A stretch of DNA of 51,741 nucleotides from Ferrithrix thermotolerans DSM 19514 (GTDB taxonomy: Bacteria > Actinomycetota > Acidimicrobiia > Acidimicrobiales > Ilumatobacteraceae), in the NCBI GenBank assembly GCA_945861325.1, contig CAMATY010000001.1:1-51741 (forward strand), written 5' to 3'. Positions 1-32,155 of this stretch are shown piece after piece. A program made the translations under genes and the position numbers. Below the pieces are notes generated by a model that worked only from the letters and a program-made list of their open reading frames with translations, had not been told where the DNA came from and did not search any database. How positions within the stretch are numbered: position 1 is the stretch's first letter; every line of letters begins with the position of its first letter.

Positions 1-330
1 GGAGATAGTGGGTTCTTCCTGAATTTTCCTGTTGAGGTTCGCTTTACAGCCCCAGATGAGATTCCGCTAAGTACAGCGAGTAATCGAGAATCTGCGTATA
101 TCGCAGTTCATATATATAAAGGGATGGACTATGTTCCGTATTTCAAAGAAGTTGAATCAATCATGAACTCATACCAAGGTCGACCCCACTGGGGCAAGTT
201 GCATTTTCAAAATGCACAGAGTCTTGCACCGAGATATCCGAATTGGGATCTGTTTCAGTCGGTTCGTAATCAAGTTGACCCAAAGAGAATCTTTACGAAC
301 GCTTACCTTGAAACCGTATTAGGCAAATGA
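1..330 (+). CDS. D-arabinono-1,4-lactone / L-gulonolactone oxidase family protein, C-terminal fragment (5' end lies outside the window)
   Basis: Frame 1 is open from nt 1. The translation ...FPVEVRFTAPDEIPLS...YQGRPHWGKLHF...DPKRIFTNAYL resembles the ALO C-terminal domain (HWGK motif). The stop overlaps the next start (ATGA at 327-330). Confidence 0.7.
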   Translation, partial: GDSGFFLNFPVEVRFTAPDEIPLSTASNRESAYIAVHIYKGMDYVPYFKEVESIMNSYQGRPHWGKLHFQNAQSLAPRYPNWDLFQSVRNQVDPKRIFTNAYLETVLGK

Positions 331-1514
331 CGATGAAAAGTTTCATAGATCTTGGTGTACCGGCAAAGTTTGCCGACAAATTAACTGCTCGAGGCATTGC
401 GACGCCTTTCGAAATTCAAACCGCTGCGATACCTGATGGTTTAGCAGGTCACGATGTTTGCGGGAAGGCACCTACCGGATCGGGCAAGACTATTGCGTTT
501 GGTCTTGTAATGGCGGTGCGGTTACAAAAATCAAAGCCGGGCCAACCCGGTGGTTTGGTGTTAGTACCAACTCGCGAATTGGCGATTCAAGTAGCGAAAG
601 AAATTGGTCTGCTGTGTGATGGAACTGATCTTCGTGTCGCTTCTGTCTACGGAGGAGCAGGCTACGGTCCGCAAGTTAAAGCTGTTCGCGGAGCAAGCAT
701 CATTGTTGCAACGCCAGGTCGTCTTGAAGACTTACTCGAGCGTCGCGATATGTCACTTAGTGCGGTGACGATTGCTGTTCTTGACGAAGCCGATCGAATG
801 TCAGACATGGGTTTCTTGCCTGCAGTGCGAAGATTGCTTCGCGCGTTACCAAAACATCGTCAGGTGTTGTTGTTCTCGGCGACGCTAGATGGTGATATTT
901 CGCAAGTTGTCAAAGAGTTTCAAAACAATCCAAAACGACACGAAACTCAAACCGATGCCGATGAACCAGACATTGATCATAAATTTTGGATGGTCAGTCG
1001 AAATGATCGTGTTGAAACAATCGCACAACTAGTTAACCACTACGAGCGACTTATCTTATTTTGTCGAACAAAGCATGGTTGCGATCGTCTTGCCAAGCAA
1101 CTAGACAACTCTGGTGTTCGATCATCAATCATTCACGGCAACAAGAGTCAAGCACAGCGAGAACGATCACTAGAAGAGTTCCGTCGCGGACGCTCGAATG
1201 CGCTTGTTGCTACAGATGTTGCAGCGCGTGGAATTCATATTGATGATGTTCCTTGCGTAGTTCATTTTGACCCGCCTGCGGATCACAAAGATTACATCCA
1301 CCGATCTGGTCGAACAGGTCGTGCAGGTTCAAAGGGCGTCGTGATATCACTTGTGGAATCTTCACAAAAGCGAACTGTCAACAAACTCGCGCGTGACGCT
1401 GGTGTTGAAGCAGACTTCGTTGCGCCTGATTTCGAACCTGCGTTGGACGAAATTGCAGCACGACCGGGAGCGCTTGGTGGAGTGTTACTAACTGTCGGTA
1501 GCCACTCCGAATAA
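327..1514 (+). CDS. DEAD-box ATP-dependent RNA helicase (short, 395 aa)
   Basis: Q-motif FEIQTAAIP, motif I APTGSGKT, Ia PTRELA, II DEAD (LDEADRM), III SAT, VI HRSGRTGRAG. Confidence 0.9.
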   Translation: MTMKSFIDLGVPAKFADKLTARGIATPFEIQTAAIPDGLAGHDVCGKAPTGSGKTIAFGLVMAVRLQKSKPGQPGGLVLVPTRELAIQVAKEIGLLCDGTDLRVASVYGGAGYGPQVKAVRGASIIVATPGRLEDLLERRDMSLSAVTIAVLDEADRMSDMGFLPAVRRLLRALPKHRQVLLFSATLDGDISQVVKEFQNNPKRHETQTDADEPDIDHKFWMVSRNDRVETIAQLVNHYERLILFCRTKHGCDRLAKQLDNSGVRSSIIHGNKSQAQRERSLEEFRRGRSNALVATDVAARGIHIDDVPCVVHFDPPADHKDYIHRSGRTGRAGSKGVVISLVESSQKRTVNKLARDAGVEADFVAPDFEPALDEIAARPGALGGVLLTVGSHSE

Positions 1515-1518
1515 TTTG

Positions 1519-3789
1519 TTAGAAACAGATATCTTGCGGACGAATTGGTACGCGAAGTAGATCTCGGCCGGTGGCGTTTCGAATTGCCGCAGCGATAGCA
1601 GGCGTAACTGAGATACATGGTGGCTCGCCGATGCCCTTGGCGCCGAGTGGAGCTTGTGGTTCGGGTTCTTCAATCATGATTGCAACAACTTGTGGTGCAT
1701 CTAGTGCGGTTGGCAATAGATAGTCAGTAAAACTGGGGTTGCGCATCTTGCCATTATCGAGAACAATCTCTTCCATCACCGCAAGACCCAGACCTTGCGC
1801 GATGCCTCCTTCAATTTGTCCGAGTGCCGCAATTGGATTTAGCACGCGACCGACATCTTGTGCCGTCGCAATCTGAATAACTTTCACCAGGCCAAGTTCA
1901 ACATCGACATCAACGACAGCACGATGCGCAACAAAAGCGAAAGCAACATGGCAGTTGCCTTGACCGTTCTCATCTAATTCTTGTGTTGGTCGATGATGAT
2001 GCTCGAATGTCTCGTCGATCAGAACTCCTGTTGAGGCTTCAGTCACGCTGATTCTGAAATCACCGATCATGTCGACGACATCGGTATCTTCAATAACTAG
2101 GCGCATTGGATCGACATCATATTTTTTGCCAATATGTTCAAACAGTCTTTGGCGTACAAGACGACATGCTCCGTCAACGGCGCCACCACTCATCCAAGTT
2201 TGTCGGGATGCCGATGTGCTGCCTGCCGAACCGATACGGGTATCAACCGGGTCAATTACGACTTCGTCAACGCCAAGTACTGAGCGTGCGATTTGTGGCG
2301 CAAGAATCACGAAACCTTGACCGACTTCAACGGTGGCATATTTAAGATGCACAACGCCATCTTGTAGTTGACAGCGAGCGGTTGCGAAATCATCGAAAGC
2401 CTCGCTGTACATCAAATTCTTGATTGATACGCCCCAACCGACGCCACGAACAATATTGTGGGGCAGCGAAGTTAAGCCAGATCCACCAACAATTTCTAGA
2501 GGATCAGCATTTTTAGCCAGTGCCGCAGGCATCGGTATTGAATTCGTTTCATTAATGCATCGCGCAACTGGAGCCACACTCTCGACTACTTGGCCAGTTA
2601 TGAGTTTGTCGCCAGTAACCATTGCATTGATTAACCGAATTTCAACTGGTGAAATGCCGCATGCGGTCGCTAATTTATCCATTTGGCTCTCATGCGCATA
2701 ACAGGCCTGAACGACTCCAAAACCTCGCATCGCACCACAAGGGGGATTATTCGTGCGAACCGCAAATCCATCAACCGTTGCATTGAGACATTTATACGGT
2801 CCTTGAATGTGAGTGATGCCATTAATCAGAACTGCCGAGGATGTTGATGCGTAAGCGCCGCCATCAAACACCATGCGAGATTCGATTCGTTGAATTACAC
2901 CAGCGCGAGTTGCGTGATGGCGAATCCAAATCTTGGCTGGGTGTCGATGAACATGACCGTAAAAAGATTCTTCCCGTCCGTATTGCATTTTGATAGGACG
3001 AGAGGTCCGTAGTGCAAGCAATGCACAGTGCACCTGCAAACTGATGTCTTCTCTTGCACCAAATGCGCCGCCGACTCCACCTAGAGTCAGTCGAACTTTT
3101 TCAAGTGGCAATCCGAGGCAGGCTGCAATTTGTTTTTGATCCTCGTGAAGCCATTGTGTGGCTACGTACATTTCTATACCATTCCCGCCAGTGTCTGGTA
3201 TCGCCAATGCTGCTTCAAGACCCAAGAATGCTTGGTCCTGCATTCCCAATTCGTAGGTGCCTTCGACAATTACTTCGCCTTGCAGATTTTGATCTCCAGT
3301 GATAATTCGTTGATGACGAATCAAGTTTCCATCTGGATGTATCTGCGCTGTAGTTGGCAGAATCGCAAATTCCGCATCGGTCACAGGTGTTAAAACTTCG
3401 TATTCAACTTTGATTGCAGCCAGAGCCCTTCGACAGGTTTCCGGATGATCAGCCGCCACCGCAGCAACAGGTTCACCGACATATCGCACAAATTCAGATG
3501 CGAAAACTGGTTGATCACTAGCGATGAGACCATACGTTTTTTTACCAGGAACATCATCGTTAGTGATGATCGCCTCAACACCCAAAATCTTGTACGCCGC
3601 AGAGAGATCAATACTCACAATTCGCGCGTATGGGTGGGGGCTTCGTAAGGTTGCGCCCCACAACATGTGTTCAGCGTGCAAATCAGATGAAAATTCAAAC
3701 TTTCCTGAAACCTTTGCTACACCGTCTGGTCGTAACGCTGAGTTTCCTAAGATCTCACGGCGTGTAGATGTCTGCGTTGCTGAACTCAT
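1519..3789 (-). CDS. Xanthine dehydrogenase-family molybdopterin-binding large subunit (756 aa)
   Basis: GGVGGAFGAREDIS (GGxFGGKE-like), AMRGFGVVQ (xRGFG), C-terminal GAKGIGEPP with the catalytic-type Glu. No CODH AYRCSFR/AYRGAGR loop. The start overlaps the Fe-S subunit stop by 1 nt. Confidence 0.9.
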   Translation of the reverse strand: MSSATQTSTRREILGNSALRPDGVAKVSGKFEFSSDLHAEHMLWGATLRSPHPYARIVSIDLSAAYKILGVEAIITNDDVPGKKTYGLIASDQPVFASEFVRYVGEPVAAVAADHPETCRRALAAIKVEYEVLTPVTDAEFAILPTTAQIHPDGNLIRHQRIITGDQNLQGEVIVEGTYELGMQDQAFLGLEAALAIPDTGGNGIEMYVATQWLHEDQKQIAACLGLPLEKVRLTLGGVGGAFGAREDISLQVHCALLALRTSRPIKMQYGREESFYGHVHRHPAKIWIRHHATRAGVIQRIESRMVFDGGAYASTSSAVLINGITHIQGPYKCLNATVDGFAVRTNNPPCGAMRGFGVVQACYAHESQMDKLATACGISPVEIRLINAMVTGDKLITGQVVESVAPVARCINETNSIPMPAALAKNADPLEIVGGSGLTSLPHNIVRGVGWGVSIKNLMYSEAFDDFATARCQLQDGVVHLKYATVEVGQGFVILAPQIARSVLGVDEVVIDPVDTRIGSAGSTSASRQTWMSGGAVDGACRLVRQRLFEHIGKKYDVDPMRLVIEDTDVVDMIGDFRISVTEASTGVLIDETFEHHHRPTQELDENGQGNCHVAFAFVAHRAVVDVDVELGLVKVIQIATAQDVGRVLNPIAALGQIEGGIAQGLGLAVMEEIVLDNGKMRNPSFTDYLLPTALDAPQVVAIMIEEPEPQAPLGAKGIGEPPCISVTPAIAAAIRNATGRDLLRVPIRPQDICF

Positions 3790-4277
3790 TAGCGACCTGC
3801 GTTACGAGTTGAAACTGCTGTAGCGACAGCCTCAAAAATGCGACCATAGCCAGTGCACCGACAGATGTTTCCTGAGATTGATTCTTTGATTTCTAGATCA
3901 GTTGGCTCAGGATTATTTGCCAGCAAATGTTCTATCGCTACTACTAACCCGGGAGTGCAGAATCCACATTGCACTCCGCCTTCGGTGATGAAAGCATCTT
4001 GCACGGCTGTCAAGGTGCCATCGTTGGTCAAACCTTCGACTGTGGTAATTTCAGAACCAATCGCTGTTGCTGCCATGACGAGGCACGAACAAACGGCTTG
4101 ACCGTCCATGATTACGGTGCAACTTCCGCATTCGCCCTGTTCACACGCACCTTTTGAACCCGGTAGTCCGAGGCGCTCACGCAACACATAAAGCAAACTT
4201 TCGCCGACCCATGCATCACGCACTTCGTGCTTGCTTCCGTTGACGGTCAAATTGTAAATTTCTGTGTTGGCAATCAT
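3789..4277 (-). CDS. (2Fe-2S)-binding small subunit of the Mo hydroxylase (162 aa)
   Basis: CEQGECGSCTV...C plant-type cluster motif plus CGFCTPG...CRCTGY second cluster motif. 4-nt overlap with the FAD subunit gene. Confidence 0.9.
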   Translation of the reverse strand: MIANTEIYNLTVNGSKHEVRDAWVGESLLYVLRERLGLPGSKGACEQGECGSCTVIMDGQAVCSCLVMAATAIGSEITTVEGLTNDGTLTAVQDAFITEGGVQCGFCTPGLVVAIEHLLANNPEPTDLEIKESISGNICRCTGYGRIFEAVATAVSTRNAGR

Positions 4278-5125
4278 TGCGTATTCGCTCTCGTCAATAG
4301 TCGCCGAGAAAGAGTTGCCACAGCATGTCGGCGATAGGCAGCAGTGCTTCGATGATCGTCAATCGGTTTGGATTCGCTAGCGATTCTGTCACCGAATTCT
4401 TTGAGCAGATTTGGCGCAACCGCAGAAACTTTTCTGAGATCTATCTGTGAGGCAATCCATGCTTCGGTTTCGCGACAGCGAACAATTGTCGGGCCGACAG
4501 CGCCGAGAGAAACTGCAATTGCGCCAACATTTCGATCGACTACAAGGCAACAAGATGCAACAGAAATTACCATTGCATTACGAACCCCGACCTTGGCGTA
4601 CCCTTGCCAGCCGTCAATGACCGGCAGCGTTGTTGAGACGATAATTTCACCCGGCTGACGGGCGTTACGTTTGACGCCGAGCATAAAGTCATGCACAGAA
4701 ATCTCACGAAAACTAGTTGCGGTATGCAAGTTGACTATTGCATTGAGCGCGCTGAGCACGGGTAGAGCATCACCTGCTGGCGAGCAAGTGCCTAGATTGC
4801 CACCGATCGAACCTGCGGCACGAATTTGTGGAGAACCTACTGTACGAGCGGCCTGTGCGAGAGCAGGGAATAGTTCGGCTAATTCTCCGTGCTCCATTTT
4901 TTGATAGGGCAGGCCAGCGCCAACCGTGACTCGCGATCTATCGGCTGAAATTTCATAGTTGCGAATTTCGTTCACTCTGCGAAGTGCAATAACATCAGTT
5001 GGCTTGCGATGATTGAAATTAATCTCGACCATCAAATCGGTGCCGCCCTGAATTATTTGTGCAGAAGGGTTTGCACTCGTGGCGATGAGCGCTTCTTTTA
5101 GCGTCAATGGAACTAGTACCGTCAC
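4274..5125 (-). CDS. FAD-binding (CoxM/XdhB-like) medium subunit of the Mo hydroxylase
   Basis: LKEAL...[10 protein letters not shown]...GSIGGNL motifs. I prefer the GTG at 5125, which forms a GTGA overlap with the upstream stop, over the longer ORF start at 5140. Confidence 0.85.
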
Positions 5126-6150
5126 GAAACACCATCCCAATTTGAGAATGCATCAATCATTGCTTTGACATCACCAAGTGGATAAAGAATCGGGCAGGTA
5201 GCGCCGTTCTTAAGGTAATGGGTTACCCGTTGACGAGCCTCTGTCGGTGTTCCACTTGCGGTGAGCATTTGAACAATTTCATCGGGCACATGTTTTGATG
5301 CTGCAACAACTTGCTCGTGAGTTGCTGGCCAAGTTAGAACTGAGCCAACTTTGTCAAGTATTGACTGGGGTACACCCGATGCCTTCATGATGTGTGGCTG
5401 TTGACCGAGATATTGGGTGACCATCTGTCGTGCCATGTCGAGAGCAGTCTTACGATCTTGATGAACGCTACAAACAACCAATTGCGGTCGATCTATTGAG
5501 TCAACAGATCTTCCTGCGCGATCAGCGCCAATAGTCAATGCTTCCATCGCCTTTTGGTTATATTCAGGTGAAACCAAGTAATTCAAAACCACGCCGTCGG
5601 CAATCTCACCAGTTAATTCCATCATCTGCATTCCAGTTGCGCCAATATAAATTGGAACATGTTTCGCGCGACGCTCCTGATACACATAGTCCAGTTCCAC
5701 GCCGTCGAGGTGCACGAATTCGCCGCTAAAAGTGACAGTCTCATTATTTAGAAGCGCACGCACACTGGTGACGATTTCGCGCATCGCACGCAATGGTTTA
5801 GCGCGCGAGATGCCAACTTTTTGCGCTAGCGGGTCCCACCATGCACCGATACCTAAAATCACGCGACCTGGCGCAAGGTCGTCGAGAGTTGAGAAAGTAG
5901 CCGCAAGGCGAGCAGGGTTACGACTCCAGCAGTCAACGACACCAGAACCGACTTTAATTCTTGTGGTTACAGATGCAAACGCGGCCATTGGTACTGTTGC
6001 TTCGCGCACGAGTCGACTCTCGGCTTGCCACACTGCTTCGAATCCTTTGCTCTCGGCGTATTTCGCAAACTCCATTCCCTCCGAAATGCGATGCGCATCT
6101 TGAAGATATAACGCAACGCGAGCGGACTTCGCTTGTGTGACTGGGCTCAT
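5122..6150 (-). CDS. Luciferase-like (LLM class, Mer/F420- or flavin-dependent) oxidoreductase (342 aa)
   Basis: TIM-barrel LLM pattern: FEAVWQAE...RIKVGSGV...[11 protein letters not shown]...YIGATG. The start abuts the upstream stop with a 0-nt gap. Confidence 0.8.
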
Positions 6151-7221
6151 TTAACTTGCCAACCTTTCGTGTAGTCGTTTCGATTGTTCGGCGGCTTTGG
6201 CTCTAACTTCATTAATGTCAACTCGTGTCGGCACACCTGAAACTAGAACTTGCTCACCGTCAATTTCAACATCTGTTGCGCGGATACCTGGCGTGAATGC
6301 GACATGCCATTCACTTTCGAGATGATCGTAATTGAACCTCACTTTGTCGGTTTTTGCTTCGGGGAAATATTTGTATCCGTTTTCAAGCCAAGACCAAACG
6401 ACAGAAGGCGAGGCGGAAACATCAAACTCGCGTAAGCGAACGTATGCAAGCCGTGCTTCTTCAAGCATGTCCGCGCCAATGCCATCCGTGCCGAGCATTA
6501 CTTGATTGTCAAGTTGAGTTGGTTTTGCATACCCCACAGAATTATTCATATTTGATCGGGGATTATGAACCACTGCGCCAGCAAGTTTGCGATCAAGATG
6601 AACCGCGTGAATTAAAAGCCAGTCGTCGTTCGCAAGATGCTCAAGTCGAGGACCGGCTTGCTGGTCATCAATACCTTCGGCAACATGAATATGTACGCCG
6701 ACATTGTGTTTTAGCGCAAGTTGGCTTGCTGCGTTCAAGGTTTCATCGCTACACGTGAAAGCAGCGTGAACACCAACCATTCCACGACCACCTTCAGATA
6801 AATAGCGATCGCATTCAGCCAAGCCTTGTTTGGCCGCTTGCGTCATCTCAGAAAGTGGCGAAACTTTTGAATGCAACTTGCCGGCATTATCCCAACGATC
6901 AGTCACTCCATAACAAGCATTTACGCGCACGCCAACCTCTTTACAAGCTTTCGCAATAGTTGACAGTGAGCCATCAATACTTTTGGGTGATTCGTGATGA
7001 TCAATAATACAAGTCGTGCCACTCAGTAGAGCCTCAGTTGCACCGAGCATCGCCGACCAATAAATCATTTGATCATCAAGCGCATCATCTAACCGCCACC
7101 AAACTTGTTGAAGAATCTCTATAAAGTTTGTCGGAGAATGTTTCGGGGCGGGCATTCCGCGAGCAAGAGACGAATACAAATGATGGTGTGCACATACAAG
7201 TCCCGCAGTCTGATTCGACAT
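6151..7221 (-). CDS. SsnA/chlorohydrolase-like amidohydrolase-superfamily protein, N-terminally short (356 aa)
   Basis: HxH metal motif already at residues 12-14 (CAHHHLYS), WWRLDDALD, IIDHHESP, HIHVAEG, HNPRSNMNNSVGY, LGTDGIGADM. As I recall E. coli SsnA, these are close to its blocks. Confidence 0.75.
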   Translation of the reverse strand: MSNQTAGLVCAHHHLYSSLARGMPAPKHSPTNFIEILQQVWWRLDDALDDQMIYWSAMLGATEALLSGTTCIIDHHESPKSIDGSLSTIAKACKEVGVRVNACYGVTDRWDNAGKLHSKVSPLSEMTQAAKQGLAECDRYLSEGGRGMVGVHAAFTCSDETLNAASQLALKHNVGVHIHVAEGIDDQQAGPRLEHLANDDWLLIHAVHLDRKLAGAVVHNPRSNMNNSVGYAKPTQLDNQVMLGTDGIGADMLEEARLAYVRLREFDVSASPSVVWSWLENGYKYFPEAKTDKVRFNYDHLESEWHVAFTPGIRATDVEIDGEQVLVSGVPTRVDINEVRAKAAEQSKRLHERLAS

Positions 7222-7224
7222 TAA

Positions 7225-9834
7225 TTAATCTTCTTGTTTGTTGCGACGCATCGGCAATGTATTTCGCCAGTTGCCATCAAGATTATGTAGCGCAGTTGCA
7301 ACGGCTCCCGCTGTTGGCACTAGCCCGATTTCTCCGACACCCTTAATGCCGTATGGTGAATTCGGTTGAGCCGACTCAATAAGTTTTACTTCAATTTTAG
7401 GAACATCCTTGGCGCGCAAAATTCCAAGACTACGCAGAGTCATATTGGTTGGAAACGCCGTAATCGGATCGGAAGGAAAATCTTCGGTCATCGCATATCC
7501 GAGACCCATGTGTACGCTGCCTTCGACTTGTCCTTCGCACAGAGTCGGATTCACTATTCGCCCAACATCATGCACTGCTAACACGCTTTCAATTTTCTGT
7601 GATGTGCGATCAATAACTACCATTTGGGCTGCATAACTAAATGTTGAGTGGATAATTGGGTTTGTTACCCCAGGTTCACCGAGTTTGTTTGTCCAGTCGA
7701 CGCGATATTCGCCGACGTGGTCAACGCCCTTGGCGAAATTCGCGGCGCGAGCGACGTCGCATGCATTCTTGACAGAGCCAGCACCCATTAACGTTCCGCG
7801 CGAACCCGTTGTCTGGCCAAAGCCAAGTTCGCGTGTCGTATCAACAATCACATCAATCAGCGTCGCATCAACGCCGAGTTCATGAACGGCAACTTGTGCA
7901 ACGACGGTGTTGATTCCCTGACCCATCTCTGTCCAACCGTGACGAACTTCAATCCGCCCGTCTTGCTTGAAATGTACAACTGCTTTGGAAATTTCTTTAA
8001 ATCCATTGCCGAGCCCACTATTCTTGAGACCCAGACCAAGACCAACTGCTTTGCCTGCAGCGATCGCCGCGTCGTAGGCCGGTTTAATTTCGTTGAGACA
8101 AATTTCTGCGCCCAGACAGCCGTCGTCCATGATCTGACCAGGACCCCAGACCATGCCCGGCTTAATTACATTTCGTGATCTGATTTCCCAGCCAGAAATA
8201 CCAACTTTTTCGGCAAGGCGATCCAAGACACCTTCCATCGCGAATTGCGCCTGATTCGCACCGAAACCACGAAAGGCACCACACACAGGATTATTCGTTC
8301 GAGCAGCAATTGCTTCGACGTCGATGTTGGCAACTTGATACGGACCGCTTGCATGTCCAGCCATTCGTTCAAGAACTTTCATCCCGACACTCGCATACGC
8401 CCCAGAGTCTCCGATTGCTCGAACACGTAACGCTGTCAGGATTCCTTGATCATCACATGCTGCTTCGTAAGTCATTTCAATTGGATGGCGCTTGGGGTGC
8501 ATCAAAAAACTTTCTTCACGAGTCAAAGTGCACTTGACGGCGGTATCAAGTAGCCACGCAGCAAGTGCCGTATGCGCTTGGTTGCTCATATCTTCTTTGC
8601 CACCGAATGCTCCACCATTTGTGATCAGTGTTACAGTCACTTGCTCATTTTGAATTGCCAGCAGGCGAGCAATGTCGTTGCGGTCATCCCACACACCTTG
8701 ACCCCCAGAATAAACCTGCAAATGTCGATTGTTGTTATCTGCACCAGGTACGCAAAGAGTGCTCTCTGGTTCTAAAAACGCGTGCTCTATCCGTTGGGTA
8801 TTAAAAGTTTCCTTGACAACATGGCTGCTAGTTGTAAAAGCTAGATCACAATCACCGCGCTTATATGTCGATTTGCTCAGAACATTTGAGTCAGTTCGCC
8901 AAACAGCCAAGTCAGATGAGTTGACTGCAACTTTCGCATCAGTGATTGGCGCAAGAACGCCGTAATCAACCGTTACAAATTCTGTCGCAGATCTTGCGTT
9001 GATACGAGAATCGGCCACGACGATTGCTAAAACATCACCGGCGTAAGATGTGCGTCCTCCAACGGGAATCATCACGGGCCAGTCTTTGTAAATAATCCCC
9101 ATCATTAGTTCGCCTGGAATATCAGCAGCAGTGAACACCGCTTTCACACCAGGCTGAGTTAGCGCAGTATTTGAATCAATCGCAAGCACATCGGCTCGTG
9201 CATGCTTCGTGAAAACTAATGCTGCGTGCAACATTCCTGGTATGCGCATGTCGTCGATATATCCGCGATCTCCGAGTGCAAGTGCTTCTGCTTCATATTT
9301 TGCAACTCGCACACCAAGTCCACCGGTTGTCAGAATTTCGCGATCAACATTTTGAGCAACAGTTTCAATCGCATCAAGAATTTTTACATAGCCAGTGCAG
9401 CGGCAAAGATGTGCGCCAAGATGTCTTGCCATATCTTCACGCTTTAACCCTGCACCTTTTTTGTCGATTTGCGCTTTCGCGCGCACGATGATCCCAGGAA
9501 TGCAAAATCCGCATTGCAAACCTCCGCAAGCAGCAAAGGCGTTGGCGAAAGCGTCACGCTCTTTTTGGCTTACGCCTTCAAGTGTCGTGATTTGCGCACC
9601 TGATACTTTTTCAAGAGACTGTTGACAACTCACGATTGCTTTGCCGTCTACTAGTACGGTGCAACAGCCACATTGACCCGTTGGTGAACAACCATCTTTC
9701 GGTGAAGTGATATCTAGCTCTTCGCGTAGTGCCGCCAATAAATGCGGGTGATCATTGCGAACAGTGACTGGAACCCCGTTGACGGAGAACGCGACGCGAT
9801 CGGCGACCTTTGGCGAATCATTGACTAGTGTCAC
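7225..9834 (-). CDS. Fused [2Fe-2S] + molybdopterin-binding hydroxylase without an FAD domain (XdhD / aldehyde-oxidoreductase architecture, 869 aa)
   Basis: N-terminus has CSPTGQCGCCTV...C and CGFCIPG...CRCTGY. The Mo domain has NGGAFGGKEDMS, GAFRGFGANQ and GIKGVGEIG (catalytic-type Glu). GTG start. Confidence 0.9.
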   Translation of the reverse strand: MTLVNDSPKVADRVAFSVNGVPVTVRNDHPHLLAALREELDITSPKDGCSPTGQCGCCTVLVDGKAIVSCQQSLEKVSGAQITTLEGVSQKERDAFANAFAACGGLQCGFCIPGIIVRAKAQIDKKGAGLKREDMARHLGAHLCRCTGYVKILDAIETVAQNVDREILTTGGLGVRVAKYEAEALALGDRGYIDDMRIPGMLHAALVFTKHARADVLAIDSNTALTQPGVKAVFTAADIPGELMMGIIYKDWPVMIPVGGRTSYAGDVLAIVVADSRINARSATEFVTVDYGVLAPITDAKVAVNSSDLAVWRTDSNVLSKSTYKRGDCDLAFTTSSHVVKETFNTQRIEHAFLEPESTLCVPGADNNNRHLQVYSGGQGVWDDRNDIARLLAIQNEQVTVTLITNGGAFGGKEDMSNQAHTALAAWLLDTAVKCTLTREESFLMHPKRHPIEMTYEAACDDQGILTALRVRAIGDSGAYASVGMKVLERMAGHASGPYQVANIDVEAIAARTNNPVCGAFRGFGANQAQFAMEGVLDRLAEKVGISGWEIRSRNVIKPGMVWGPGQIMDDGCLGAEICLNEIKPAYDAAIAAGKAVGLGLGLKNSGLGNGFKEISKAVVHFKQDGRIEVRHGWTEMGQGINTVVAQVAVHELGVDATLIDVIVDTTRELGFGQTTGSRGTLMGAGSVKNACDVARAANFAKGVDHVGEYRVDWTNKLGEPGVTNPIIHSTFSYAAQMVVIDRTSQKIESVLAVHDVGRIVNPTLCEGQVEGSVHMGLGYAMTEDFPSDPITAFPTNMTLRSLGILRAKDVPKIEVKLIESAQPNSPYGIKGVGEIGLVPTAGAVATALHNLDGNWRNTLPMRRNKQED

Positions 9835-9864
9835 ATAAACACCATACAGCTATTGAGCTTGAGG

Positions 9865-9879
9865 TTTACATTATGTAAA
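9865..9879. promoter_or_regulatory. Perfect 7-1-7 palindrome TTTACAT-T-ATGTAAA in the only spacer inside the catabolic gene array; candidate operator overlapping a -10-like CATAAT (minus strand)
   Basis: Read directly from the sequence. It lies 31-45 nt upstream of the GTG start at 9834. Confidence 0.3.
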
Positions 9880-9904
9880 GAATGGCGATTTTAAAACGGC
9901 AATT

Positions 9905-10828
9905 TCATTCAATAATTGACCCGCGCTGGGAGGTGATTCTGCCGTAAACCTCTGGTCGACGGTAACGGTTGAAATCAAAAAGCGTATTTTTATAGTTGTT
10001 GCACCAGTCCAAATCGCAAACTGCAGTCACAACTTCATCTTCGCTTGTTGAAGTTTTGGCGAGTATCTCACCCGACGGGGCAATGATACTTGAGTCGGCC
10101 AAACTGTCTACGCCTTCTTCGATACCTCCTTTTGCCACACCAACGACAAACGTGCCGTTTTGATAAGCGCCACTTTGCATCACAAGAGCGTTGTGAAAAC
10201 TCTGAAGCGGGTCTTGCGTCGGATCAGGAACATATTGCAGCGGCGTGTTGTATCCACAGAGAATCATTTCAACACCTTGTAAACCCATCACACGATAACT
10301 TTCTGGCCATCGACGATCATTACAGATCATCATTCCAATTCGACCACCGAACGCCTTCCAAACTCCGAAGCCTTCGTCGCTAGGTTTAAAGTAATAACGC
10401 TCGGCGTGTTGAAATGGTCGATCAGGCTCGTGATGTTCATGCCCAGGAATATGTACTTTACGATATTTGGCAACAGTTGAACCATCGCGTTCAACTAAAA
10501 TTTGTGTATTGAAGCGCTCTCCTTGCGGTGTCAACTCTGCGTAGCCCAAACAAAAACCTATTGCAAGTTTTTTCGCTTCGTCAAAAAGTGGTCTCGTGAT
10601 TGCTGATGGCATTTGCGTTTCGTACCAATGATCTGCGGTCGAAATATCTTCGACAAACCACCGCGGAAAAAAAGTGGTCAAAGCCAACTCCGGAAATACG
10701 ACCAACTCTGCTTTGTGTGAATGCGCTTCGCGCAGCAACGCTATTAAACGCTGGACTACCGCCGTGCGATCATCTTGCCGCTGAACCGGACCAAGTTGTG
10801 CGGCAGCGACTTTGATCGAGCGAGACAT
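9905..10828 (-). CDS. CN-hydrolase (nitrilase superfamily) enzyme, N-carbamoyl-D-amino-acid hydrolase-like (307 aa)
   Basis: Glu-Lys-Cys triad contexts VVFPELALTTFFPRW, KYRKVHIPG and MMICNDRRWPE. The overall pattern is close to Agrobacterium D-carbamoylase as I recall it. Confidence 0.8.
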   Translation of the reverse strand: MSRSIKVAAAQLGPVQRQDDRTAVVQRLIALLREAHSHKAELVVFPELALTTFFPRWFVEDISTADHWYETQMPSAITRPLFDEAKKLAIGFCLGYAELTPQGERFNTQILVERDGSTVAKYRKVHIPGHEHHEPDRPFQHAERYYFKPSDEGFGVWKAFGGRIGMMICNDRRWPESYRVMGLQGVEMILCGYNTPLQYVPDPTQDPLQSFHNALVMQSGAYQNGTFVVGVAKGGIEEGVDSLADSSIIAPSGEILAKTSTSEDEVVTAVCDLDWCNNYKNTLFDFNRYRRPEVYGRITSQRGSIIE

Positions 10829-12100
10829 CTAATTGTCGCTATCTGCATCAAGCGTTGTCAACGAAAGCATCGTGTGCAGCAAGATATTTGCACCCGCTAT
10901 CAAATCGATAGTTTCGGTGAATTCCGATGGGTTATGGCTGATCCCTTTGACACTGGGCACAAAAATCATTCCTGACGGACAAACGCGTGCGAGCATCTGT
11001 GCGTCATGACCCGCACCTGAAGGCATTCGTTGCACGGTGTTACCTTGTGCTTTAGCGATCTGTTCAACGCAGTCGATGACTCGCTCGTCAAAAATAACCG
11101 GCTCAAAGCGGGCGAGTTGTCTCGTGGTGATTTTTACACCTTCGCTTTTGGCTAGTCCAACAAAAAAATCTGCAATTTGTGACTCGGCTTTTTGCAATAG
11201 TATTTCATCGGTATTGCGAACATCAAGAGTGATTGTTGCTTTGGCGGCTACAACGTTTGTCAGATTCGGGTGAATGTCAATCTTTCCGACTGTACATACT
11301 TGATGACCACCCATCTGCTTGGCGAGATTACGGACAAACACTGTTATCTCGGCGGCAACATAAGCAGGATCATGTCGCAACGACATCGGAGTAGTTCCAG
11401 CATGATTTGACTGACCCGTAATCACCACCTCTTGCCATGAGATTCCTTGCACGCTGGTCACTGCGCCAATTCGAACATTGTTTGCCTCAAGCATCGGACC
11501 TTGTTCAATATGCAATTCAACAAACGCATGCGGAATTAAACCTGGGCAAGGTGTGGTGCCTGCATAGCCAATTCGAAGAAGTTCTTCACCAAGAATTGCG
11601 CCGTCAATTGCAACAACATCCAACGCTTGTTCTAACGGCATGCCACCCACATAGACAAGTGAACCGAGCATGTCAGGAGCAAAACGCGAGCCTTCTTCGT
11701 CTGTAAAAATTCCAACAGCAAGTGGCCTTGAAGGTTTAATACCTGATTGTTGACAAGTCTCGATTACTTCAAGAGCGGCAAGGACTCCGTAACATCCGTC
11801 GAATCTGCCACCAGTTCGCACGGTGTCAATATGCGATCCTGACATCACTGGCGCACCTTGACCAATATTCCATATCCCAATAATGTTGCCAATTGCATCA
11901 ATTAACACATCTAAATTGCAATCTTTCATCCACGAGATGAGTAAGTCGCGTCCATATTTATCGTCGTCGGTAAGAGCAAGTCGACAGTTTCCGCCACCAT
12001 CAATCGGTGAGATTTCGGCTAATGAATTGATTCGTCTCATCAAGCGATCACCGTCAACTGACAGCGAGAGATGCTGCTTACTTAAATCACCAATTGCCAC
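10829..12100 (-). CDS. M20-family Zn hydrolase of the allantoate amidohydrolase / N-carbamoyl-L-amino-acid hydrolase / beta-ureidopropionase group (423 aa)
   Basis: GSHIDTVRTGGRFDG, FTDEEGSRF, HNPSEF and a dimerisation-domain pattern. GTG start. The stop abuts the next start (0 nt). Confidence 0.8.
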   Translation of the reverse strand: MAIGDLSKQHLSLSVDGDRLMRRINSLAEISPIDGGGNCRLALTDDDKYGRDLLISWMKDCNLDVLIDAIGNIIGIWNIGQGAPVMSGSHIDTVRTGGRFDGCYGVLAALEVIETCQQSGIKPSRPLAVGIFTDEEGSRFAPDMLGSLVYVGGMPLEQALDVVAIDGAILGEELLRIGYAGTTPCPGLIPHAFVELHIEQGPMLEANNVRIGAVTSVQGISWQEVVITGQSNHAGTTPMSLRHDPAYVAAEITVFVRNLAKQMGGHQVCTVGKIDIHPNLTNVVAAKATITLDVRNTDEILLQKAESQIADFFVGLAKSEGVKITTRQLARFEPVIFDERVIDCVEQIAKAQGNTVQRMPSGAGHDAQMLARVCPSGMIFVPSVKGISHNPSEFTETIDLIAGANILLHTMLSLTTLDADSDN

Positions 12101-12137
12101 TTAGAGATTTTACACCATCATTTGCCATGATGGGTGG

Positions 12138-13484
12138 GTGATTAATCGAGAGAAACTTACACAACTGATCAGTGCTGAAGAAGAGTTATTCGTGTGCCGT
12201 AATCCAAAGTCTCAACAAGTAGCTGTATCGGCAAGTAGATCACTTGTTTCTGGTGTTCCAATGCCGTGGATGACTAGATGGTCTGGGGCATTTCCGATTT
12301 GTGTCGATAAAGCCAGTGGCGCAAAATTTACAGATATAGACGGAAATGAATACATCGATTTTTGCCTTGGTGACACAGGATCAATGACGGGTCACGCTGT
12401 TGAGCAAATTTCTCAAGCGATCACGAAGCAACTTGCAAATGGCTCGACAATGATGTTGCCGACGCAAGATGCCTTTTGGGTAGGTGAAGAGTTAACCCGT
12501 AGGTTCGGTCTCCCTAAATGGCAATTTACAGTAAGTGCCACAGACGCAAATAGATTTGTTTTGCGAATTGCGCGGTCTTTAACCAAACGAAAAAAAGTTT
12601 TAGTTCATGATTGGTGCTACCACGGAACCGTTGACGAGACGTTGGTGATTGCCGATAGTCACGGTAGAACTATTTCAAGACCTGGCGCGATTGGCCCACA
12701 AGTGGATCCCGCGGAGACGACACGAGTTGTAGCCTTCAATGATCTCGAAGCACTTGAAGAGCAGCTATCTCATCGCGATGTTGCATGCATGTTGATTGAA
12801 CCTGCGTTGACAAATATCGGGATAGTTCTTCCTGATCAAGGATATTTGGATGGTGTTCGAGAACTGACTCACAAATATGGAACGCTGTTGGCTATTGATG
12901 AGACACACACGATCTGTGCGGGTTCAGGGGGCTGCACGAAACTTTGGAATCTGAAGCCGGATATTTTGGTGGTTGGAAAAACAATCGGAGGCGGAATTCC
13001 AGTGGCTGCATATGGCTTGAGCCGTGAAGTTGCCGAGCAAATTGAAAGACAACTGAGTAACCATGAAGTTGATGTCTCTGGCATTGGCGGAACACTGTCG
13101 GGAAGCGCACTTGCAATGGCCGCAGTTCGCGCAACACTTACAAATAGTTTGTTACAGCCTCAGTTCAATGATGCGATCGTGTTGGCTTCAAGATGGGCGG
13201 AAGGTGTAAAGAACTCGTATCTTAAGCACGGATTGAATTGGAGTGTGCAGCAATTAGGTTGTCGCGCTGAGTATTGTTTTGCCGAACTTCCACGCACTGG
13301 CGCCCAAGCAGCTAACGCTTCTGATCCACAACTAGAGAGTTTCTTGCACATCTGGGCAATCAATCGCGGCGTGTTGCTGACACCTTTTCACAATATGGCT
13401 TTGATTTCGCCATTTCATAGCGCGCAAGACATAGATCTTCACACGCAAATCTTTGATCAGGCACTAGGCGCCTTGAGTAACTGA
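12138..13484 (+). CDS. Class-III (GSA-aminomutase-like) PLP-dependent aminotransferase (448 aa)
   Basis: DTGSMTGH, LIEPALTN, AIDETHT, VVGKTIGGGIP (PLP lysine context). GTG start 37 nt from the divergent M20 gene. Confidence 0.8.
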   Translation: MINREKLTQLISAEEELFVCRNPKSQQVAVSASRSLVSGVPMPWMTRWSGAFPICVDKASGAKFTDIDGNEYIDFCLGDTGSMTGHAVEQISQAITKQLANGSTMMLPTQDAFWVGEELTRRFGLPKWQFTVSATDANRFVLRIARSLTKRKKVLVHDWCYHGTVDETLVIADSHGRTISRPGAIGPQVDPAETTRVVAFNDLEALEEQLSHRDVACMLIEPALTNIGIVLPDQGYLDGVRELTHKYGTLLAIDETHTICAGSGGCTKLWNLKPDILVVGKTIGGGIPVAAYGLSREVAEQIERQLSNHEVDVSGIGGTLSGSALAMAAVRATLTNSLLQPQFNDAIVLASRWAEGVKNSYLKHGLNWSVQQLGCRAEYCFAELPRTGAQAANASDPQLESFLHIWAINRGVLLTPFHNMALISPFHSAQDIDLHTQIFDQALGALSN

Positions 13485-13490
13485 CGAAGC

Positions 13491-14222
13491 ATGACACCAC
13501 AACAGTTTCTGTGCATTGCTCTGATTGTTTTCGGAGCATCAATCATTCAGGCATTATTTGGTTTCGGCTTCGGGTTGATATCGGTGCCGCTGATGATTTT
13601 CTTTATTGATCTGCCAACGGCGGTTGTGACTGCGACTGCTGTCTCAACTGTAAGTTGTTCTGTTCAATGGTGGGAATCGCGCGCGGTTGATGTGCGCGAG
13701 ATGTCGATGCGGCTTATTCGCTCAGCGATCGTTGGCATGCCATTTGGGCTTTGGTTACTGCTCAATATTGATGCTCGACTAATGAAAGCCTTACTAGGAG
13801 TAGTCGTATTAATCGGAGTTTTTCTGAGCATCAAGGGTTTTGATTTGCAACGACTACCCAAATCTTTTGATTACACGATGGGCTTTATCTCTGGAGTTTT
13901 ATCGACAGCGACTTCGACAAACGGTCCGCCGTTGGTTTTTTTGCTACATGCTCGCCACTATTCACCCGAGAACTTTCGTGCTGTGTTGAACCGGGTGTTT
14001 TCTTTCCTGAACTTTCTTACGCTGATAATTTTTACGGTGGCGGGAAAACTAACAAGCGATGCCTTACGACTTGCGATGCTTTCGATTCCTGTTATGGGAT
14101 GTGGTGTATTTCTCGGAACACGAATGAGAAAAAGAATCAACCCTGAACATTTTAGAAACCTCGTAATTGGCTTGTTGTTGTTAAGCGGGCTTAGCGCAAT
14201 AGCCAATTCAATATTCAGTTGA
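13491..14222 (+). CDS. TauE/SafE-family anion (sulfite/organosulfonate-type) permease (243 aa)
   Basis: About 7-8 hydrophobic helices in two internally similar halves (GFGFGLISVPLM... / GVLSTATSTNGPPL). 6 nt downstream of the aminotransferase gene. Confidence 0.75.
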   Translation: MTPQQFLCIALIVFGASIIQALFGFGFGLISVPLMIFFIDLPTAVVTATAVSTVSCSVQWWESRAVDVREMSMRLIRSAIVGMPFGLWLLLNIDARLMKALLGVVVLIGVFLSIKGFDLQRLPKSFDYTMGFISGVLSTATSTNGPPLVFLLHARHYSPENFRAVLNRVFSFLNFLTLIIFTVAGKLTSDALRLAMLSIPVMGCGVFLGTRMRKRINPEHFRNLVIGLLLLSGLSAIANSIFS

Positions 14223-14241
14223 GTTTAAGAATTGCTCAGAC

Positions 14242-14961
14242 TTAGCGACTAAACCATTCAAGCCATTGTTGCTGGGTTTGTGGTTCGAACACGTGGTTAG
14301 TGGCAACTACATCGCCTAAATTGCTTGACGGCATTGCCGAATATTGGTGACCAGGGCAGACCAATGTGTCAACAGGCATTTTGGCTAGTTTTTGTAAACT
14401 GAAAAACATTTCACCAGGGTCGCTACCTGGAAGATCGGTACGACCGCAGCCCTCTAAAAATAATGTATCTCCTGCTATCAGTCGCTGCTCAACCAAAAAA
14501 CATTGGCTACCTGGAGTATGTCCTGGGGTATGTACTAAGGTGATTTCGATTTCGCCAACAGTAATTTTTTCGCCACCTTCATGTTTGGCTAAGTCGCGGT
14601 CGGAGATTCCGGTCGTGCGAGTGACCCAGGTCGATTCGGCACTATTGACATGAATCGGCACATGATGTTTTTCAAGTAATGCAGCCACGCCCTGAATGTT
14701 CATTCCCATCATTGATCCGCCTACGTGATCAGGATGGTAGTGAGTTGCTAGAACTCCACTGAGTTTCATGTCGTCGTGTTCAATGATTGACAGCAAATCG
14801 TCAACGGCATATGCAGGGTCGACGACAACACACTCACGCGTCTGTGTATCACCGATCAAATAAACGAAATTCACCATCTGATTGGCGAGGTGATCAGACT
14901 TAGCAAAATCACGGCCCGATAACAATTGCCTAAAATAAAGCCGATCAGATGTCATAGCCAT
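14242..14961 (-). CDS. MBL-fold metallo-hydrolase, ETHE1/persulfide-dioxygenase- or glyoxalase-II-like (239 aa)
   Basis: THYHPDHVGG (HxHxDH), HTPGHTPGS, GDTLFLEGCGRTDLPG, CPGHQY. Confidence 0.8.
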   Translation of the reverse strand: MAMTSDRLYFRQLLSGRDFAKSDHLANQMVNFVYLIGDTQTRECVVVDPAYAVDDLLSIIEHDDMKLSGVLATHYHPDHVGGSMMGMNIQGVAALLEKHHVPIHVNSAESTWVTRTTGISDRDLAKHEGGEKITVGEIEITLVHTPGHTPGSQCFLVEQRLIAGDTLFLEGCGRTDLPGSDPGEMFFSLQKLAKMPVDTLVCPGHQYSAMPSSNLGDVVATNHVFEPQTQQQWLEWFSR

Positions 14962-14992
14962 TGGCTTTAGGCTAGCGACCTAGTCTGATGCC

Positions 14993-16084: not shown

Positions 16085-16847
16085 CCAGAGTTAATCCACC
16101 ATCAACTACGAGAATTTGCCCAGTTGCAAATTTATTTCGGATTAGAGCGATCGTTGCTTGCGCACAATCGTGCGGGGTTGCAGACCGTCGCAGTGGTGCG
16201 ATCTTTGCAACATTGTCGTGTTGGTTTTGCCAATCTTTTGTCCACGGGGTTTCGACTAATCCTGGTGCGACAGCATTCACCCGCACTGGGCCGCATGACT
16301 TTGCCAGTAATAAAGTCATGTGATTTAAAGCGGCCTTTGTCATGGCGTAGGCGATCGAACTGCCAACTGGTCGAACTCCAGCAATCGATGTGATATTTAC
16401 AACATTGCCGTCAGTACTTTTCGAAAGAAATGGAATTGCTGCTTTTGTCAACCACCATGTGCCAAAAACATTGACATCAAAAGTTTTGGCGAAAATTTCG
16501 TCGGTCAATGCATCCAGATCGTGATGCGCTACGAGTGTTGTCCATCCGGCGTTATTGATCAAGATATCCAATTTGCCGAAATTCGCTATTGTCGTATCAA
16601 TAAGTTTCTGTCCTGATTGCCTATCAGCAATATCAGCCTGAATATAAATAGAGTTATTTTCAAGAGACTCGGCTATTTTTTGACCTGCTTCAATTGACGA
16701 GGACGAATTCACAACAACAGTTGCTCCTAAACCACTCAGCCGACGAGCAATCTCTTCACCGATGCCAGATGAAGACCCAGTGACGATTGCAATTTGTCCT
16801 GCAAGTTCTTTGGGTGAACCTTCTAAATTTTTCGGTTGCGTCATCAT
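16077..16847 (-). CDS. Short-chain dehydrogenase/reductase (SDR, 256 aa)
   Basis: TGSSSGIG cofactor motif, NNAG, S...YAMTKAA (YxxxK). Confidence 0.9.
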   Translation of the reverse strand: MMTQPKNLEGSPKELAGQIAIVTGSSSGIGEEIARRLSGLGATVVVNSSSSIEAGQKIAESLENNSIYIQADIADRQSGQKLIDTTIANFGKLDILINNAGWTTLVAHHDLDALTDEIFAKTFDVNVFGTWWLTKAAIPFLSKSTDGNVVNITSIAGVRPVGSSIAYAMTKAALNHMTLLLAKSCGPVRVNAVAPGLVETPWTKDWQNQHDNVAKIAPLRRSATPHDCAQATIALIRNKFATGQILVVDGGLTLVI

Positions 16848-32154: not shown

Positions 32155-32155
32155 C

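Follow-up and report, generated by a model that had tools for sequence, protein, structure and literature searches.

A gene array from freshwater Acidimicrobiia that may encode an F420-type variant of the reductive urate pathway

A reductive pathway for urate was shown in 2025 in Escherichia coli, Clostridioides difficile and Clostridium sporogenes (Li et al., 2025, bioRxiv 10.1101/2025.05.19.654654; Liu et al., 2025, bioRxiv 10.1101/2025.04.24.650524). According to these two studies, the 2,8-dioxopurine formed from urate by the dehydroxylase XdhD or XdhAC is reduced by YgfK, or by UacX in C. difficile. Ring opening by SsnA then gives ureidomethyl-hydantoin, which HyuA opens to diureidopropionate; YgeW or UacY and then YgeY strip the two ureido groups, and YgeX converts 2,3-diaminopropionate to pyruvate. 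Here, we analyze a stretch of 51,741 nucleotides (contig CAMATY010000001.1, positions 1 to 51,741; hereafter the window) in which eight minus-strand genes, packed over positions 1519-12100, encode two molybdenum (Mo) hydroxylases, a short SsnA-type amidohydrolase, an oxidoreductase of the luciferase-like monooxygenase (LLM) family and two amidases. The explanation that we prefer, and consider fairly probable, is that this array encodes an F420/LLM-type version of the route that degrades urate and other purines reductively through 2,8-dioxopurine, in an aerobic freshwater bacterium of the Acidimicrobiia.

Several features of the published pathway are relevant to this comparison. SsnA has been called the marker gene of the pathway (Li et al., 2025; Liu et al., 2025), and YgfK is specific for 2,8-dioxopurine in published work. 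The ureido intermediates are proposed to be R (D) configured, and diureidopropionate is a homologue of allantoate. A commentary describes the pathway as restricted to obligate or facultative anaerobes. Bioinformatic work alone has indicated that in the SsnA neighborhoods of Chloroflexota a luciferase-like (PF00296) gene replaces YgfK/UacX (Li et al., 2025, Fig. 3c and Discussion; bioRxiv 10.1101/2025.05.19.654654), and its product was proposed to be an F420-dependent isoxanthine reductase (Li et al., 2025). In the literature searched, only Li et al. tie F420 to 2,8-dioxopurine/isoxanthine, without experiments on that variant.

The array and the E. coli/Clostridium cluster appear to have a common logic of dehydroxylation, reduction, ring opening and decarbamoylation. 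In both, the gene for an SsnA-type amidohydrolase adjoins those for an iron-sulfur/molybdenum (Fe-S/Mo) hydroxylase and a reductase, there are two enzymes for the two ureido groups, and a xanthine dehydrogenase (XDH) accompanies the set. The parts themselves differ. The reductase is an F420-type LLM rather than YgfK or UacX, the SsnA is short (356 aa), and the Mo enzyme, which shares 23% identity with XdhD, comes without a dedicated YgfM. The M20 hydrolase belongs to the AllC/carbamoylase subfamily rather than to YgeY, a D-carbamoylase and a class-III aminotransferase are added, and the host is an aerobe. The window also lacks HyuA, YgeW/YqeA or UacY, YgeX, and the selenium-trait genes yqeB/yqeC. 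An earlier sequence-only reading had described the array as a catabolic pathway for a purine-type N-heterocycle and had noted its kinship with the xdhD-ygfM-ssnA-ygeY region of E. coli. The first claim holds, and the second proved to be the decisive lead. Searches with Pfam and NCBIfam profiles bore out every one of its domain calls. High-identity synteny with a characterized pathway, which would have spoken against novelty, was not found: the closest characterized proteins are 23-36% identical. Judged by homology, the array differs from any characterized operon, with unrelated enzymes at four or more steps, and is partly anticipated by the Chloroflexota F420 note of Li et al.

The evidence that links the array to the urate pathway comes from related loci, in which gene content, homologies, conservation and patterns of substitution can be read directly. 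One genome per GTDB species was scanned, which gave at least 596 SsnA relatives. The best 80, all of the short form and 55-78% identical, were used together with two further loci (L001 and L002) and the window, and the window and E. coli pathway proteins were mapped onto these 83 loci by tblastn presence tables. Most of the 80 species belong to the Acidimicrobiia and come from lakes, oceans, sponges and soils; some are metagenome-assembled genomes (MAGs) of Chloroflexia and Limnocylindrales. Among the 64 loci with at least 3.5 kb of sequence downstream of the short SsnA, an LLM gene is present in 37 and a YgfK gene in 12, and none has both. The YgfK homologues are either full-length or a 595-aa N-terminal form, and the one in L050 passes the equivalog cut-off (TIGR03315, 876 vs. 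835 bits); L054 holds a fragmentary YgfK-like open reading frame (ORF). Likewise, D-carbamoylase and M20 alternate with YgeW and YqeA, and the end of the pathway is represented by one of three modules: YgeX (8 loci), a pair of pyridoxal-phosphate (PLP)-fold proteins, or a trio of aminotransferase, TauE and metallo-beta-lactamase-fold (MBL) genes. Mutually exclusive substitutions of this kind are to be expected when genes of a single pathway undergo non-orthologous displacement. They link the short SsnA, and with it the array, to the 2,8-dioxopurine route. The sequence-only reading had instead cast the LLM, the SsnA-like protein and the carbon-nitrogen (CN) hydrolase as stand-ins for the middle of the oxidative route; the LLM/YgfK, carbamoylase/YgeW-YqeA and end-module swaps favor the reductive pathway.

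Gene order provides a second line of evidence. The full arrangement of the window, MBL-TauE-aminotransferase divergent from the M20-to-Mo series, recurs in metagenomic contigs L001-L003 (67-73% SsnA identity) and in about 17 GTDB species of freshwater Acidimicrobiia (59-78% SsnA identity) with different flanking genes, and is therefore not due to chance. Sister loci also contain neighboring genes that could feed purines into the pathway, 8-oxoguanine-deaminase-like and adenine/adenosine-deaminase-like, as well as nearby ATP-binding cassette (ABC) transporter genes that from their sequences appear to be of the Bmp type.

A few of these loci deserve separate mention. A gene of the 8-oxoguanine-deaminase family directly follows the LLM gene in L029, L035, L042, L057, L077 and L079 (e.g., L077:13188-14276), lies elsewhere in the locus in L052, L055, L060, L068, L070, L078 and L084, and is absent from the window. 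Partial sequences of this protein score 513-519 bits against the NF006055 cut-off of 532, and by homology its product would be urate. An Actinomycetota MAG (L042:1-21017) carries two purine clusters back to back. The first is of the LLM type (XDH, M20, D-carbamoylase, fusion, short SsnA, LLM and the 8-oxoguanine-deaminase-like gene), and the second, on the opposite strand, is of the canonical selenium type, with YqeB-like, SsnA-like (29% identity) and XdhD-homologous (34%) proteins. The PLP-fold pair (about 499 and 401 aa, tryptophan-synthase-beta-like) was found in marine, sponge and Chloroflexia loci (L035, L037, L058, L060, L068, L070, L071, L076, L082 and L084; e.g., L084:16661-18163, minus strand). 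It weakly matches cysteine synthase and threonine synthase/dehydratase models and may be an alternative end module to YgeX. Three loci in which the short SsnA stands alone (L018, L033 and L059) were set aside, as its neighbors there are unrelated (acyl-CoA dehydrogenase, betaine-type ABC, wax-ester synthase, acyltransferases).

The LLM gene (5122-6150, minus strand) encodes a Bac_luciferase protein (Pfam, 217.6 bits) whose top 15 NCBIfam matches are all F420-dependent LLMs (Mer-type, 176 bits), with flavin mononucleotide (FMN)-type models at 53 bits or less. It reaches no NCBIfam cut-off (e.g., TIGR03841, 127.9 vs. 213.65 bits). The closest solved structures include F420-dependent Mer (127 bits), FGD and hydroxymycolic acid dehydrogenase. 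It is also the most conserved protein of the array, with 83-95% identity where SsnA has 65-78% and the FAD (flavin adenine dinucleotide) subunit 55-80%, which suggests an unusually strong constraint. No homologue of YgfK or UacX (PF01180) was detected in the window by tblastn or Pfam, and the LLM gene holds the position that YgfK has in 12 sister loci. We propose the LLM as a candidate F420-type 2,8-dioxopurine reductase that stands in for YgfK/UacX. Marine Acidimicrobiia (Ca. Actinomarinales) have been reported to make F420, so by analogy its use is plausible in this class.

The short SsnA (6151-7221, minus strand) is 36% identical to residues 57-348 of E. coli SsnA. Its best models are PRK07203 (242.5 bits) and TIGR03314 (231.9 bits), followed by 8-oxoguanine deaminase at 84.8 bits; the SsnA models match at model positions 60-340 only. 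The metal ligands (HxH, HxH..E and D246) are kept. In an AlphaFold2 model with a predicted local distance difference test (pLDDT) score of 94.6, the barrel begins directly at the HxH strand, and the nearest solved folds returned by Foldseek are deaminase-type amidohydrolases; no SsnA structure was among them. From its homology, we propose that this protein opens the reduced pyrimidine ring hydrolytically. The sequence-only reading had offered, as a simpler view, that it is a deaminase. In that case, a purine or pterin deaminase (e.g., of the 8-oxoguanine/isoguanine type) would feed both hydroxylases, and the carbamoylases would act on the products of a ring-opening system encoded elsewhere. 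The closest folds to the model are indeed all deaminases or chlorohydrolases (isocytosine deaminase, adenosine-deaminase homologues, guanine deaminase; query TM-score about 0.8), the metal ligands are those of subtype-III amidohydrolases, and a few compact loci retain the short SsnA beside XDH in the absence of fusion and LLM. However, E. coli SsnA shares this fold class and yet is a ring-opening hydrolase, and the sequence resembles SsnA much more than it does any family of deaminases (242 vs. 85 bits). Moreover, the short SsnA is tightly paired with either the LLM or a bona fide YgfK in sister loci, some of which hold a separate 8-oxoguanine-deaminase-like gene in the same cluster. A deaminase function may keep some footing in the modeled fold; as an account of the array we judge it quite unlikely and favor ring opening.

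Immediately upstream of the short SsnA, in the window as in 53 of the 69 loci with enough upstream sequence, lies the gene for the Fe-S/Mo fusion (7225-9834, minus strand). Its product contains Fer2_2, Ald_Xan_dh_C, MoCoBD_1 and MoCoBD_2 but no FAD domain, an architecture similar to that of the Desulfovibrio gigas aldehyde oxidoreductase, and has a Mo domain like that of nicotinate dehydrogenase. It matches TIGR03311 (Se_dep_XDH) end to end with 813.9 bits, just under the cut-off of 830.45. We propose it as a candidate for interconversion of urate and 2,8-dioxopurine, that is, a dehydroxylase analogous to XdhD/XdhAC (DOPDH). This assignment follows from its position and its replacement by XdhD homologues in two loci, rather than from orthology. 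These loci, L050 and L081, have no fusion gene and instead encode an XdhD homologue with 35-36% identity to the E. coli protein, accompanied in L081 by YgfM, YqeB and YqeC. The published DOPDH signature A1078T/S (bovine numbering) is found in the fusion, where the equivalent residue is Thr (T676) and E1261 is kept in a MAFFT alignment with a bovine XDH fragment. The PucD-like subunit described below also has Ser there, so this position does not separate the two Mo proteins. The alignment misplaced the F1009 loop, such that A1078 and E1261 could be read and F1009V could not.

The other Mo enzyme is encoded by the last three genes of the array, for the FAD (4274-5140), 2Fe-2S (3789-4277) and Mo (1519-3789) subunits, all on the minus strand. 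The Mo subunit, with domains Ald_Xan_dh_C, MoCoBD_1 and MoCoBD_2, scores 807.8 bits against TIGR03196 (pucD; curated cut-off 783.65), is 29% identical to E. coli XdhA over its full length and retains the equivalents of bovine E802, R880 and E1261. The 2Fe-2S subunit (Fer2_2 and Fer2) has XdhC/PucE-type models as its best NCBIfam matches (161-164 bits, under their cut-offs), and the FAD subunit contains FAD_binding_5 and CO_deh_flav_C. Thus, the PucD cut-off is passed while the PucE and PucC equivalog scores of the two smaller subunits fall below theirs, and on this sequence basis the three genes constitute a PucCDE-type xanthine dehydrogenase. In related loci they always travel as a block, whose position relative to the core varies. 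A single FAD subunit common to both Mo enzymes was considered and is unsupported, as the FAD gene moves with the XDH genes and not with the fusion. Both Mo proteins keep the GGxFGxxE motif (GGAFGARE and GGAFGGKE), the RGFG loop and a C-terminal Glu that aligns with bovine E1261, in agreement with what had been noted about XDH-type loops and the catalytic Glu.

The two amidases come first in the direction of transcription. The CN-hydrolase (9905-10828, minus strand) matches the D-carbamoylases 8i99, 6lei, 1erz, 1fo6 and 2ggk with 335-377 bits over residues 1-303. Its translation contains the motifs VFPELALT, YRKVHIPG and MICNDRRWPE (with the CNDRRWPE substrate loop), which we take to be the sites of the Glu-Lys-Cys triad, as in the Agrobacterium enzyme. 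By homology it is clearly an N-carbamoyl-D-amino-acid hydrolase (D-carbamoylase). The M20 hydrolase (10829-12100, minus strand) scores 383 bits against TIGR01879 (cut-off 204) and 407.4 bits against NF006771, "allantoate amidohydrolase" (cut-off 399). Among the nearest structures whose activity is named are N-carbamoyl-beta-alanine amidohydrolase and L-carbamoylase. The protein is no YgeY orthologue (E = 0.005 with E. coli YgeY; YgeY model, 21.6 bits); it is proposed to cleave the 3-ureido group in place of YgeY. Neither YgeW nor YqeA had a tblastn match in the window.

The oxidative aerobic route envisaged in the sequence-only reading can be weighed against these assignments. In that route, XDH would make urate, the LLM would be a flavin monooxygenase in place of uricase/HpxO, the SsnA-like protein would replace allantoinase, M20 would be an allantoate amidohydrolase, the CN-hydrolase would act on ureidoglycine or ureidoglycolate, and the aminotransferase would serve as PucG. 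The array does resemble pucABCDE/all of Bacillus subtilis in its PucD-like Mo subunit, separate 2Fe-2S and FAD subunits, M20 of the allantoate-amidohydrolase family and adjoining aminotransferase, as in puc clusters; the M20 and PucD proteins pass the respective model cut-offs, and the host is an aerobe. Unlike in B. subtilis, a search of the 51.7-kb window, in which 40 large ORFs were compared with Pfam, gave no uricase/HpxO, 5-hydroxyisourate (HIU) hydrolase, 2-oxo-4-hydroxy-4-carboxy-5-ureidoimidazoline (OHCU) decarboxylase or allantoinase, and the aminotransferase is of the glutamate-1-semialdehyde (GSA)-aminomutase-like rather than the PucG type and is clade-specific. Further, the LLM is nearest to F420-dependent reductases and not to FMN monooxygenases, the CN-hydrolase is a clear D-carbamoylase, and the short SsnA is interchangeably partnered with YgfK, YgeW/YqeA and YgeX in sister loci. 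The oxidative route would also leave a second, FAD-less Mo enzyme, fixed beside SsnA, without a role. We therefore consider it unlikely and prefer the reductive pathway.

Divergent from the array, with its start 37 nt from that of M20, is the gene for the class-III aminotransferase (12138-13484, plus strand). It is followed after 6 nt by a TauE/SafE-family permease gene (13491-14222, plus strand; Pfam TauE, 110 bits) and, convergent with the latter, a gene for a GloB-like MBL-fold hydrolase (14242-14961, minus strand; Pfam Lactamase_B, 84.7 bits; GloB model, 111 bits, under the cut-off of 200.8). The aminotransferase scores 626.5 bits against NF005453 (cut-off 425) and belongs to the PRK07046 GSA-aminomutase-like subfamily. 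Its closest structure is the uncharacterized 5ykr, followed by GSA aminomutases and beta-transaminases; a literature search on PDB 5ykr returned nothing relevant to its function. The MBL gene adjoins TauE in L001-L003 and the freshwater GTDB loci, TauE is co-conserved with the aminotransferase and MBL genes there, and the trio is confined to the freshwater clade, including the window. Contrary to the view that the aminotransferase is a pathway step of the array, it thus lies outside the conserved core. We suggest that it is a lineage-specific end module, possibly one that handles 2,3-diaminopropionate, a vicinal diamine. By tblastn, the window has no YgeX, which 8 sister loci do carry. An aldehyde dehydrogenase gene beside the MBL/TauE/aminotransferase module in L001 (789-2252) and L002 (796-2226) would suit an aldehyde product of the aminotransferase.

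D-carbamoylases classically work with hydantoinases, and the array shares a full-length D-carbamoylase homologue with the D-hydantoinase/D-carbamoylase systems of Agrobacterium and Pseudomonas. It differs from these systems in having no D-hydantoinase/dihydropyrimidinase, the SsnA-type protein being the sole cyclic amidohydrolase candidate. Another reading is a reductive pyrimidine or hydantoin route, in which the LLM would be an F420-dependent analogue of dihydropyrimidine dehydrogenase, the SsnA-like protein a dihydropyrimidinase/hydantoinase, M20 a beta-ureidopropionase and the aminotransferase an enzyme acting on beta-alanine. The D-carbamoylase would end the "hydantoinase process," and the Mo enzymes would form a separate purine module. 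Such a route would accommodate the likeness of M20 to N-carbamoyl-beta-alanine amidohydrolase, the relationship of the aminotransferase to beta-transaminases and the aldehyde dehydrogenase in L001 and L002, and the published urate pathway has itself been described as an analogue of Pyd. It does not explain why the fusion gene keeps its place immediately before the short SsnA across clades, why the alternative partner is YgfK, with its published specificity for 2,8-dioxopurine, or why sister loci contain YgeX, purine deaminase-like genes and ABC transporter genes of the Bmp type; the aminotransferase, moreover, stands outside the core. We hold the pyrimidine route to be as improbable as the deaminase one.

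For the reductive urate pathway, we infer the following sequence of reactions, in which the substrates, the dependence on F420, the direction in which the Fe-S/Mo enzyme works and the part played by the aminotransferase are all predictions from homology and context. The three-subunit PucCDE-like xanthine dehydrogenase would convert hypoxanthine and xanthine to urate, from which the FAD-less fusion would strip the 6-oxo group to give 2,8-dioxopurine. The LLM would then pass a hydride from F420H2 and dearomatize the pyrimidine ring, in place of the Fe-S flavoprotein YgfK or UacX. Hydrolysis of the C4 amidine by the short SsnA would yield ureidomethyl-hydantoin or 5-ureido-dihydrouracil, and a second ring opening, for which the window encodes no enzyme, would lead to 2,3-diureidopropionate. 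The D-carbamoylase would take off the 2-ureido (alpha) group, which fits the proposed D configuration, and the allantoate-amidohydrolase-like M20 the 3-ureido (beta) group, leaving 2,3-diaminopropionate. In the freshwater clade, the GSA-aminomutase-like aminotransferase, and not the ammonia-lyase YgeX, may dispose of this diamine. The hydantoinase step would be performed either by a general dihydropyrimidinase encoded elsewhere or, more speculatively, by the short SsnA carrying out both C4 hydrolyses.

Several observations weigh against this scheme. The fusion shares no more than 23% identity with E. coli XdhD and scores 157 bits on the XdhD model TIGR03313 (cut-off 1101.9). It keeps the XDH-type Glu/Arg pair and its nearest family is annotated as "Se-dependent XDH," and it could therefore be a second xanthine or purine hydroxylase. 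The short SsnA falls below the curated SsnA cut-offs (444 and 455.5) and lacks the N-terminal ~55 residues. M20 just passes the "allantoate amidohydrolase" model, which is compatible with an oxidative route too. A tblastn search with E. coli HyuA found no HyuA/dihydropyrimidinase in the window, and HyuA-like sequences occur in only 4 of the 83 related loci. Finally, five freshwater-clade species (L024, L027, L034, L047 and L039; e.g., L024:6339-12357) have a compact array of M20, D-carbamoylase, short SsnA, FAD, Fe-S and Mo genes, with gaps of 4-36 nt where fusion and LLM would sit. Since both genes are missing there, the short SsnA of these variants either has another substrate or is served by a fusion/LLM pair elsewhere in the genome. 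Because the two are absent together, they appear to be gained or lost as a pair, which fits a functional unit.

The compact variants also speak for a purely hydrolytic, xanthinase-like scheme, in which the short SsnA would cut xanthine, urate or another oxopurine without prior reduction, the carbamoylases would trim the product, and fusion and LLM would be optional extras that extend the substrate range. A hydrolytic xanthine amidohydrolase pathway does exist in Clostridia and Bacilli, and in the five species M20, D-carbamoylase, short SsnA and XDH persist. Yet the window showed none of the genes expected further along that pathway (for a decarboxylase, an aminoimidazole deaminase and formiminoglycine enzymes), and the short SsnA is paired with a reductase in 49 of 64 loci. 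We find this scheme highly improbable and retain the reductive one. Its most far-reaching form would have aerobic planktonic Acidimicrobiia of freshwater, marine and sponge habitats run an oxygen-tolerant, F420H2-driven route. XDH and the Mo dehydroxylase would together isomerize xanthine to 2,8-dioxopurine, the LLM would substitute for YgfK, the truncated SsnA would perform both C4 hydrolyses, and the aminotransferase would handle 2,3-diaminopropionate. Taken as a whole, this combination is a tentative and rather doubtful extension.

A partial precedent is the F420-type SsnA neighborhood of Chloroflexota, in which, as in the array, a PF00296 gene lies beside SsnA instead of YgfK/UacX (Li et al., 2025). 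The clade that carries the array belongs to Acidimicrobiia, whereas the neighborhoods of Li et al. come from Chloroflexota members of IPR017700. The Chloroflexia MAGs with a short SsnA found here carry YgfK and not LLM. TIGR03314 is presumably the model behind IPR017700. The SsnA of the array reaches 232 bits against the TIGR03314 cut-off of 455.5, and an IPR017700-based survey may have missed it for this reason.

An ORF scan reproduced the gene order given in the sequence-only reading, including the divergent aminotransferase and TauE genes at 37 nt. From M20 to Mo, the junctions measure 0, 70, 3 and 0 nt, then the LLM/FAD overlap, then -4 and -1 nt. All agree with that reading except the LLM/FAD junction, given there as -4, which is an overlap of 19 nt with the longest FAD ORF (TTG start at 5140). 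The true start may be codon 6 (Val, inferred rather than read from the codon itself), which would make the junction -4 and is presumably the start assumed in that reading. An Rfam scan of positions 1-16500 at E ≤ 0.1 returned no RNA family, and hence neither the 70-nt spacer nor the divergent region of 37 nt shows a sign of a riboswitch. Scans for sigma-70 promoters and terminators yielded no more matches than expected from shuffled sequence and were uninformative. The guanine-cytosine content is 45-50% (about 47%) across the window, and homologue names indicate freshwater Acidimicrobiia (Ilumatobacteraceae, "acIV"), in keeping with the Actinobacteria named in the sequence-only reading. The window encodes a heme A synthase, CtaA (29894-30796), from which we conclude that the host respires oxygen.

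Outside the array and its neighbors, the window holds housekeeping genes. Beyond the MBL gene, where L001 and L002 have the aldehyde dehydrogenase, lie genes for a Gfo/Idh/MocA oxidoreductase (14993-16084), a short-chain dehydrogenase/reductase (16077-16847) and a DAO-type FAD oxidoreductase (16869-18242). Beside CtaA and unlinked to the purine array is a gene (28761-29822) for a 353-aa TetR-family regulator fused to a C-terminal SnoaL-like domain. A set of four ABC transporter genes (30823-34756) is convergent with the gene for a branched-chain-type periplasmic binding protein (34864-36222), which has an N-terminal extension of about 210 residues without a Pfam match.

Together with its roughly 80 species-level relatives, the array suggests that the logic of the reductive urate pathway operates in abundant aerobic aquatic Actinobacteria. 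The parts appear to have been swapped, with an F420-type LLM for YgfK, hydrolytic carbamoylases for the carbamoyltransferase and kinase, and no selenium-trait genes in the window. The short SsnA clade lies below the curated family threshold. If the proposal is true, an environmental F420-dependent LLM would gain its first class of physiological substrates, the engineering of urate-degrading probiotics could draw on simpler enzymes without an Fe-S flavoprotein, and a set of markers would be at hand for the recycling of purine nitrogen in lakes and oceans. The reductive route would then be a major means of purine and nitrogen recycling in oxic waters, and not a specialization of anaerobes.

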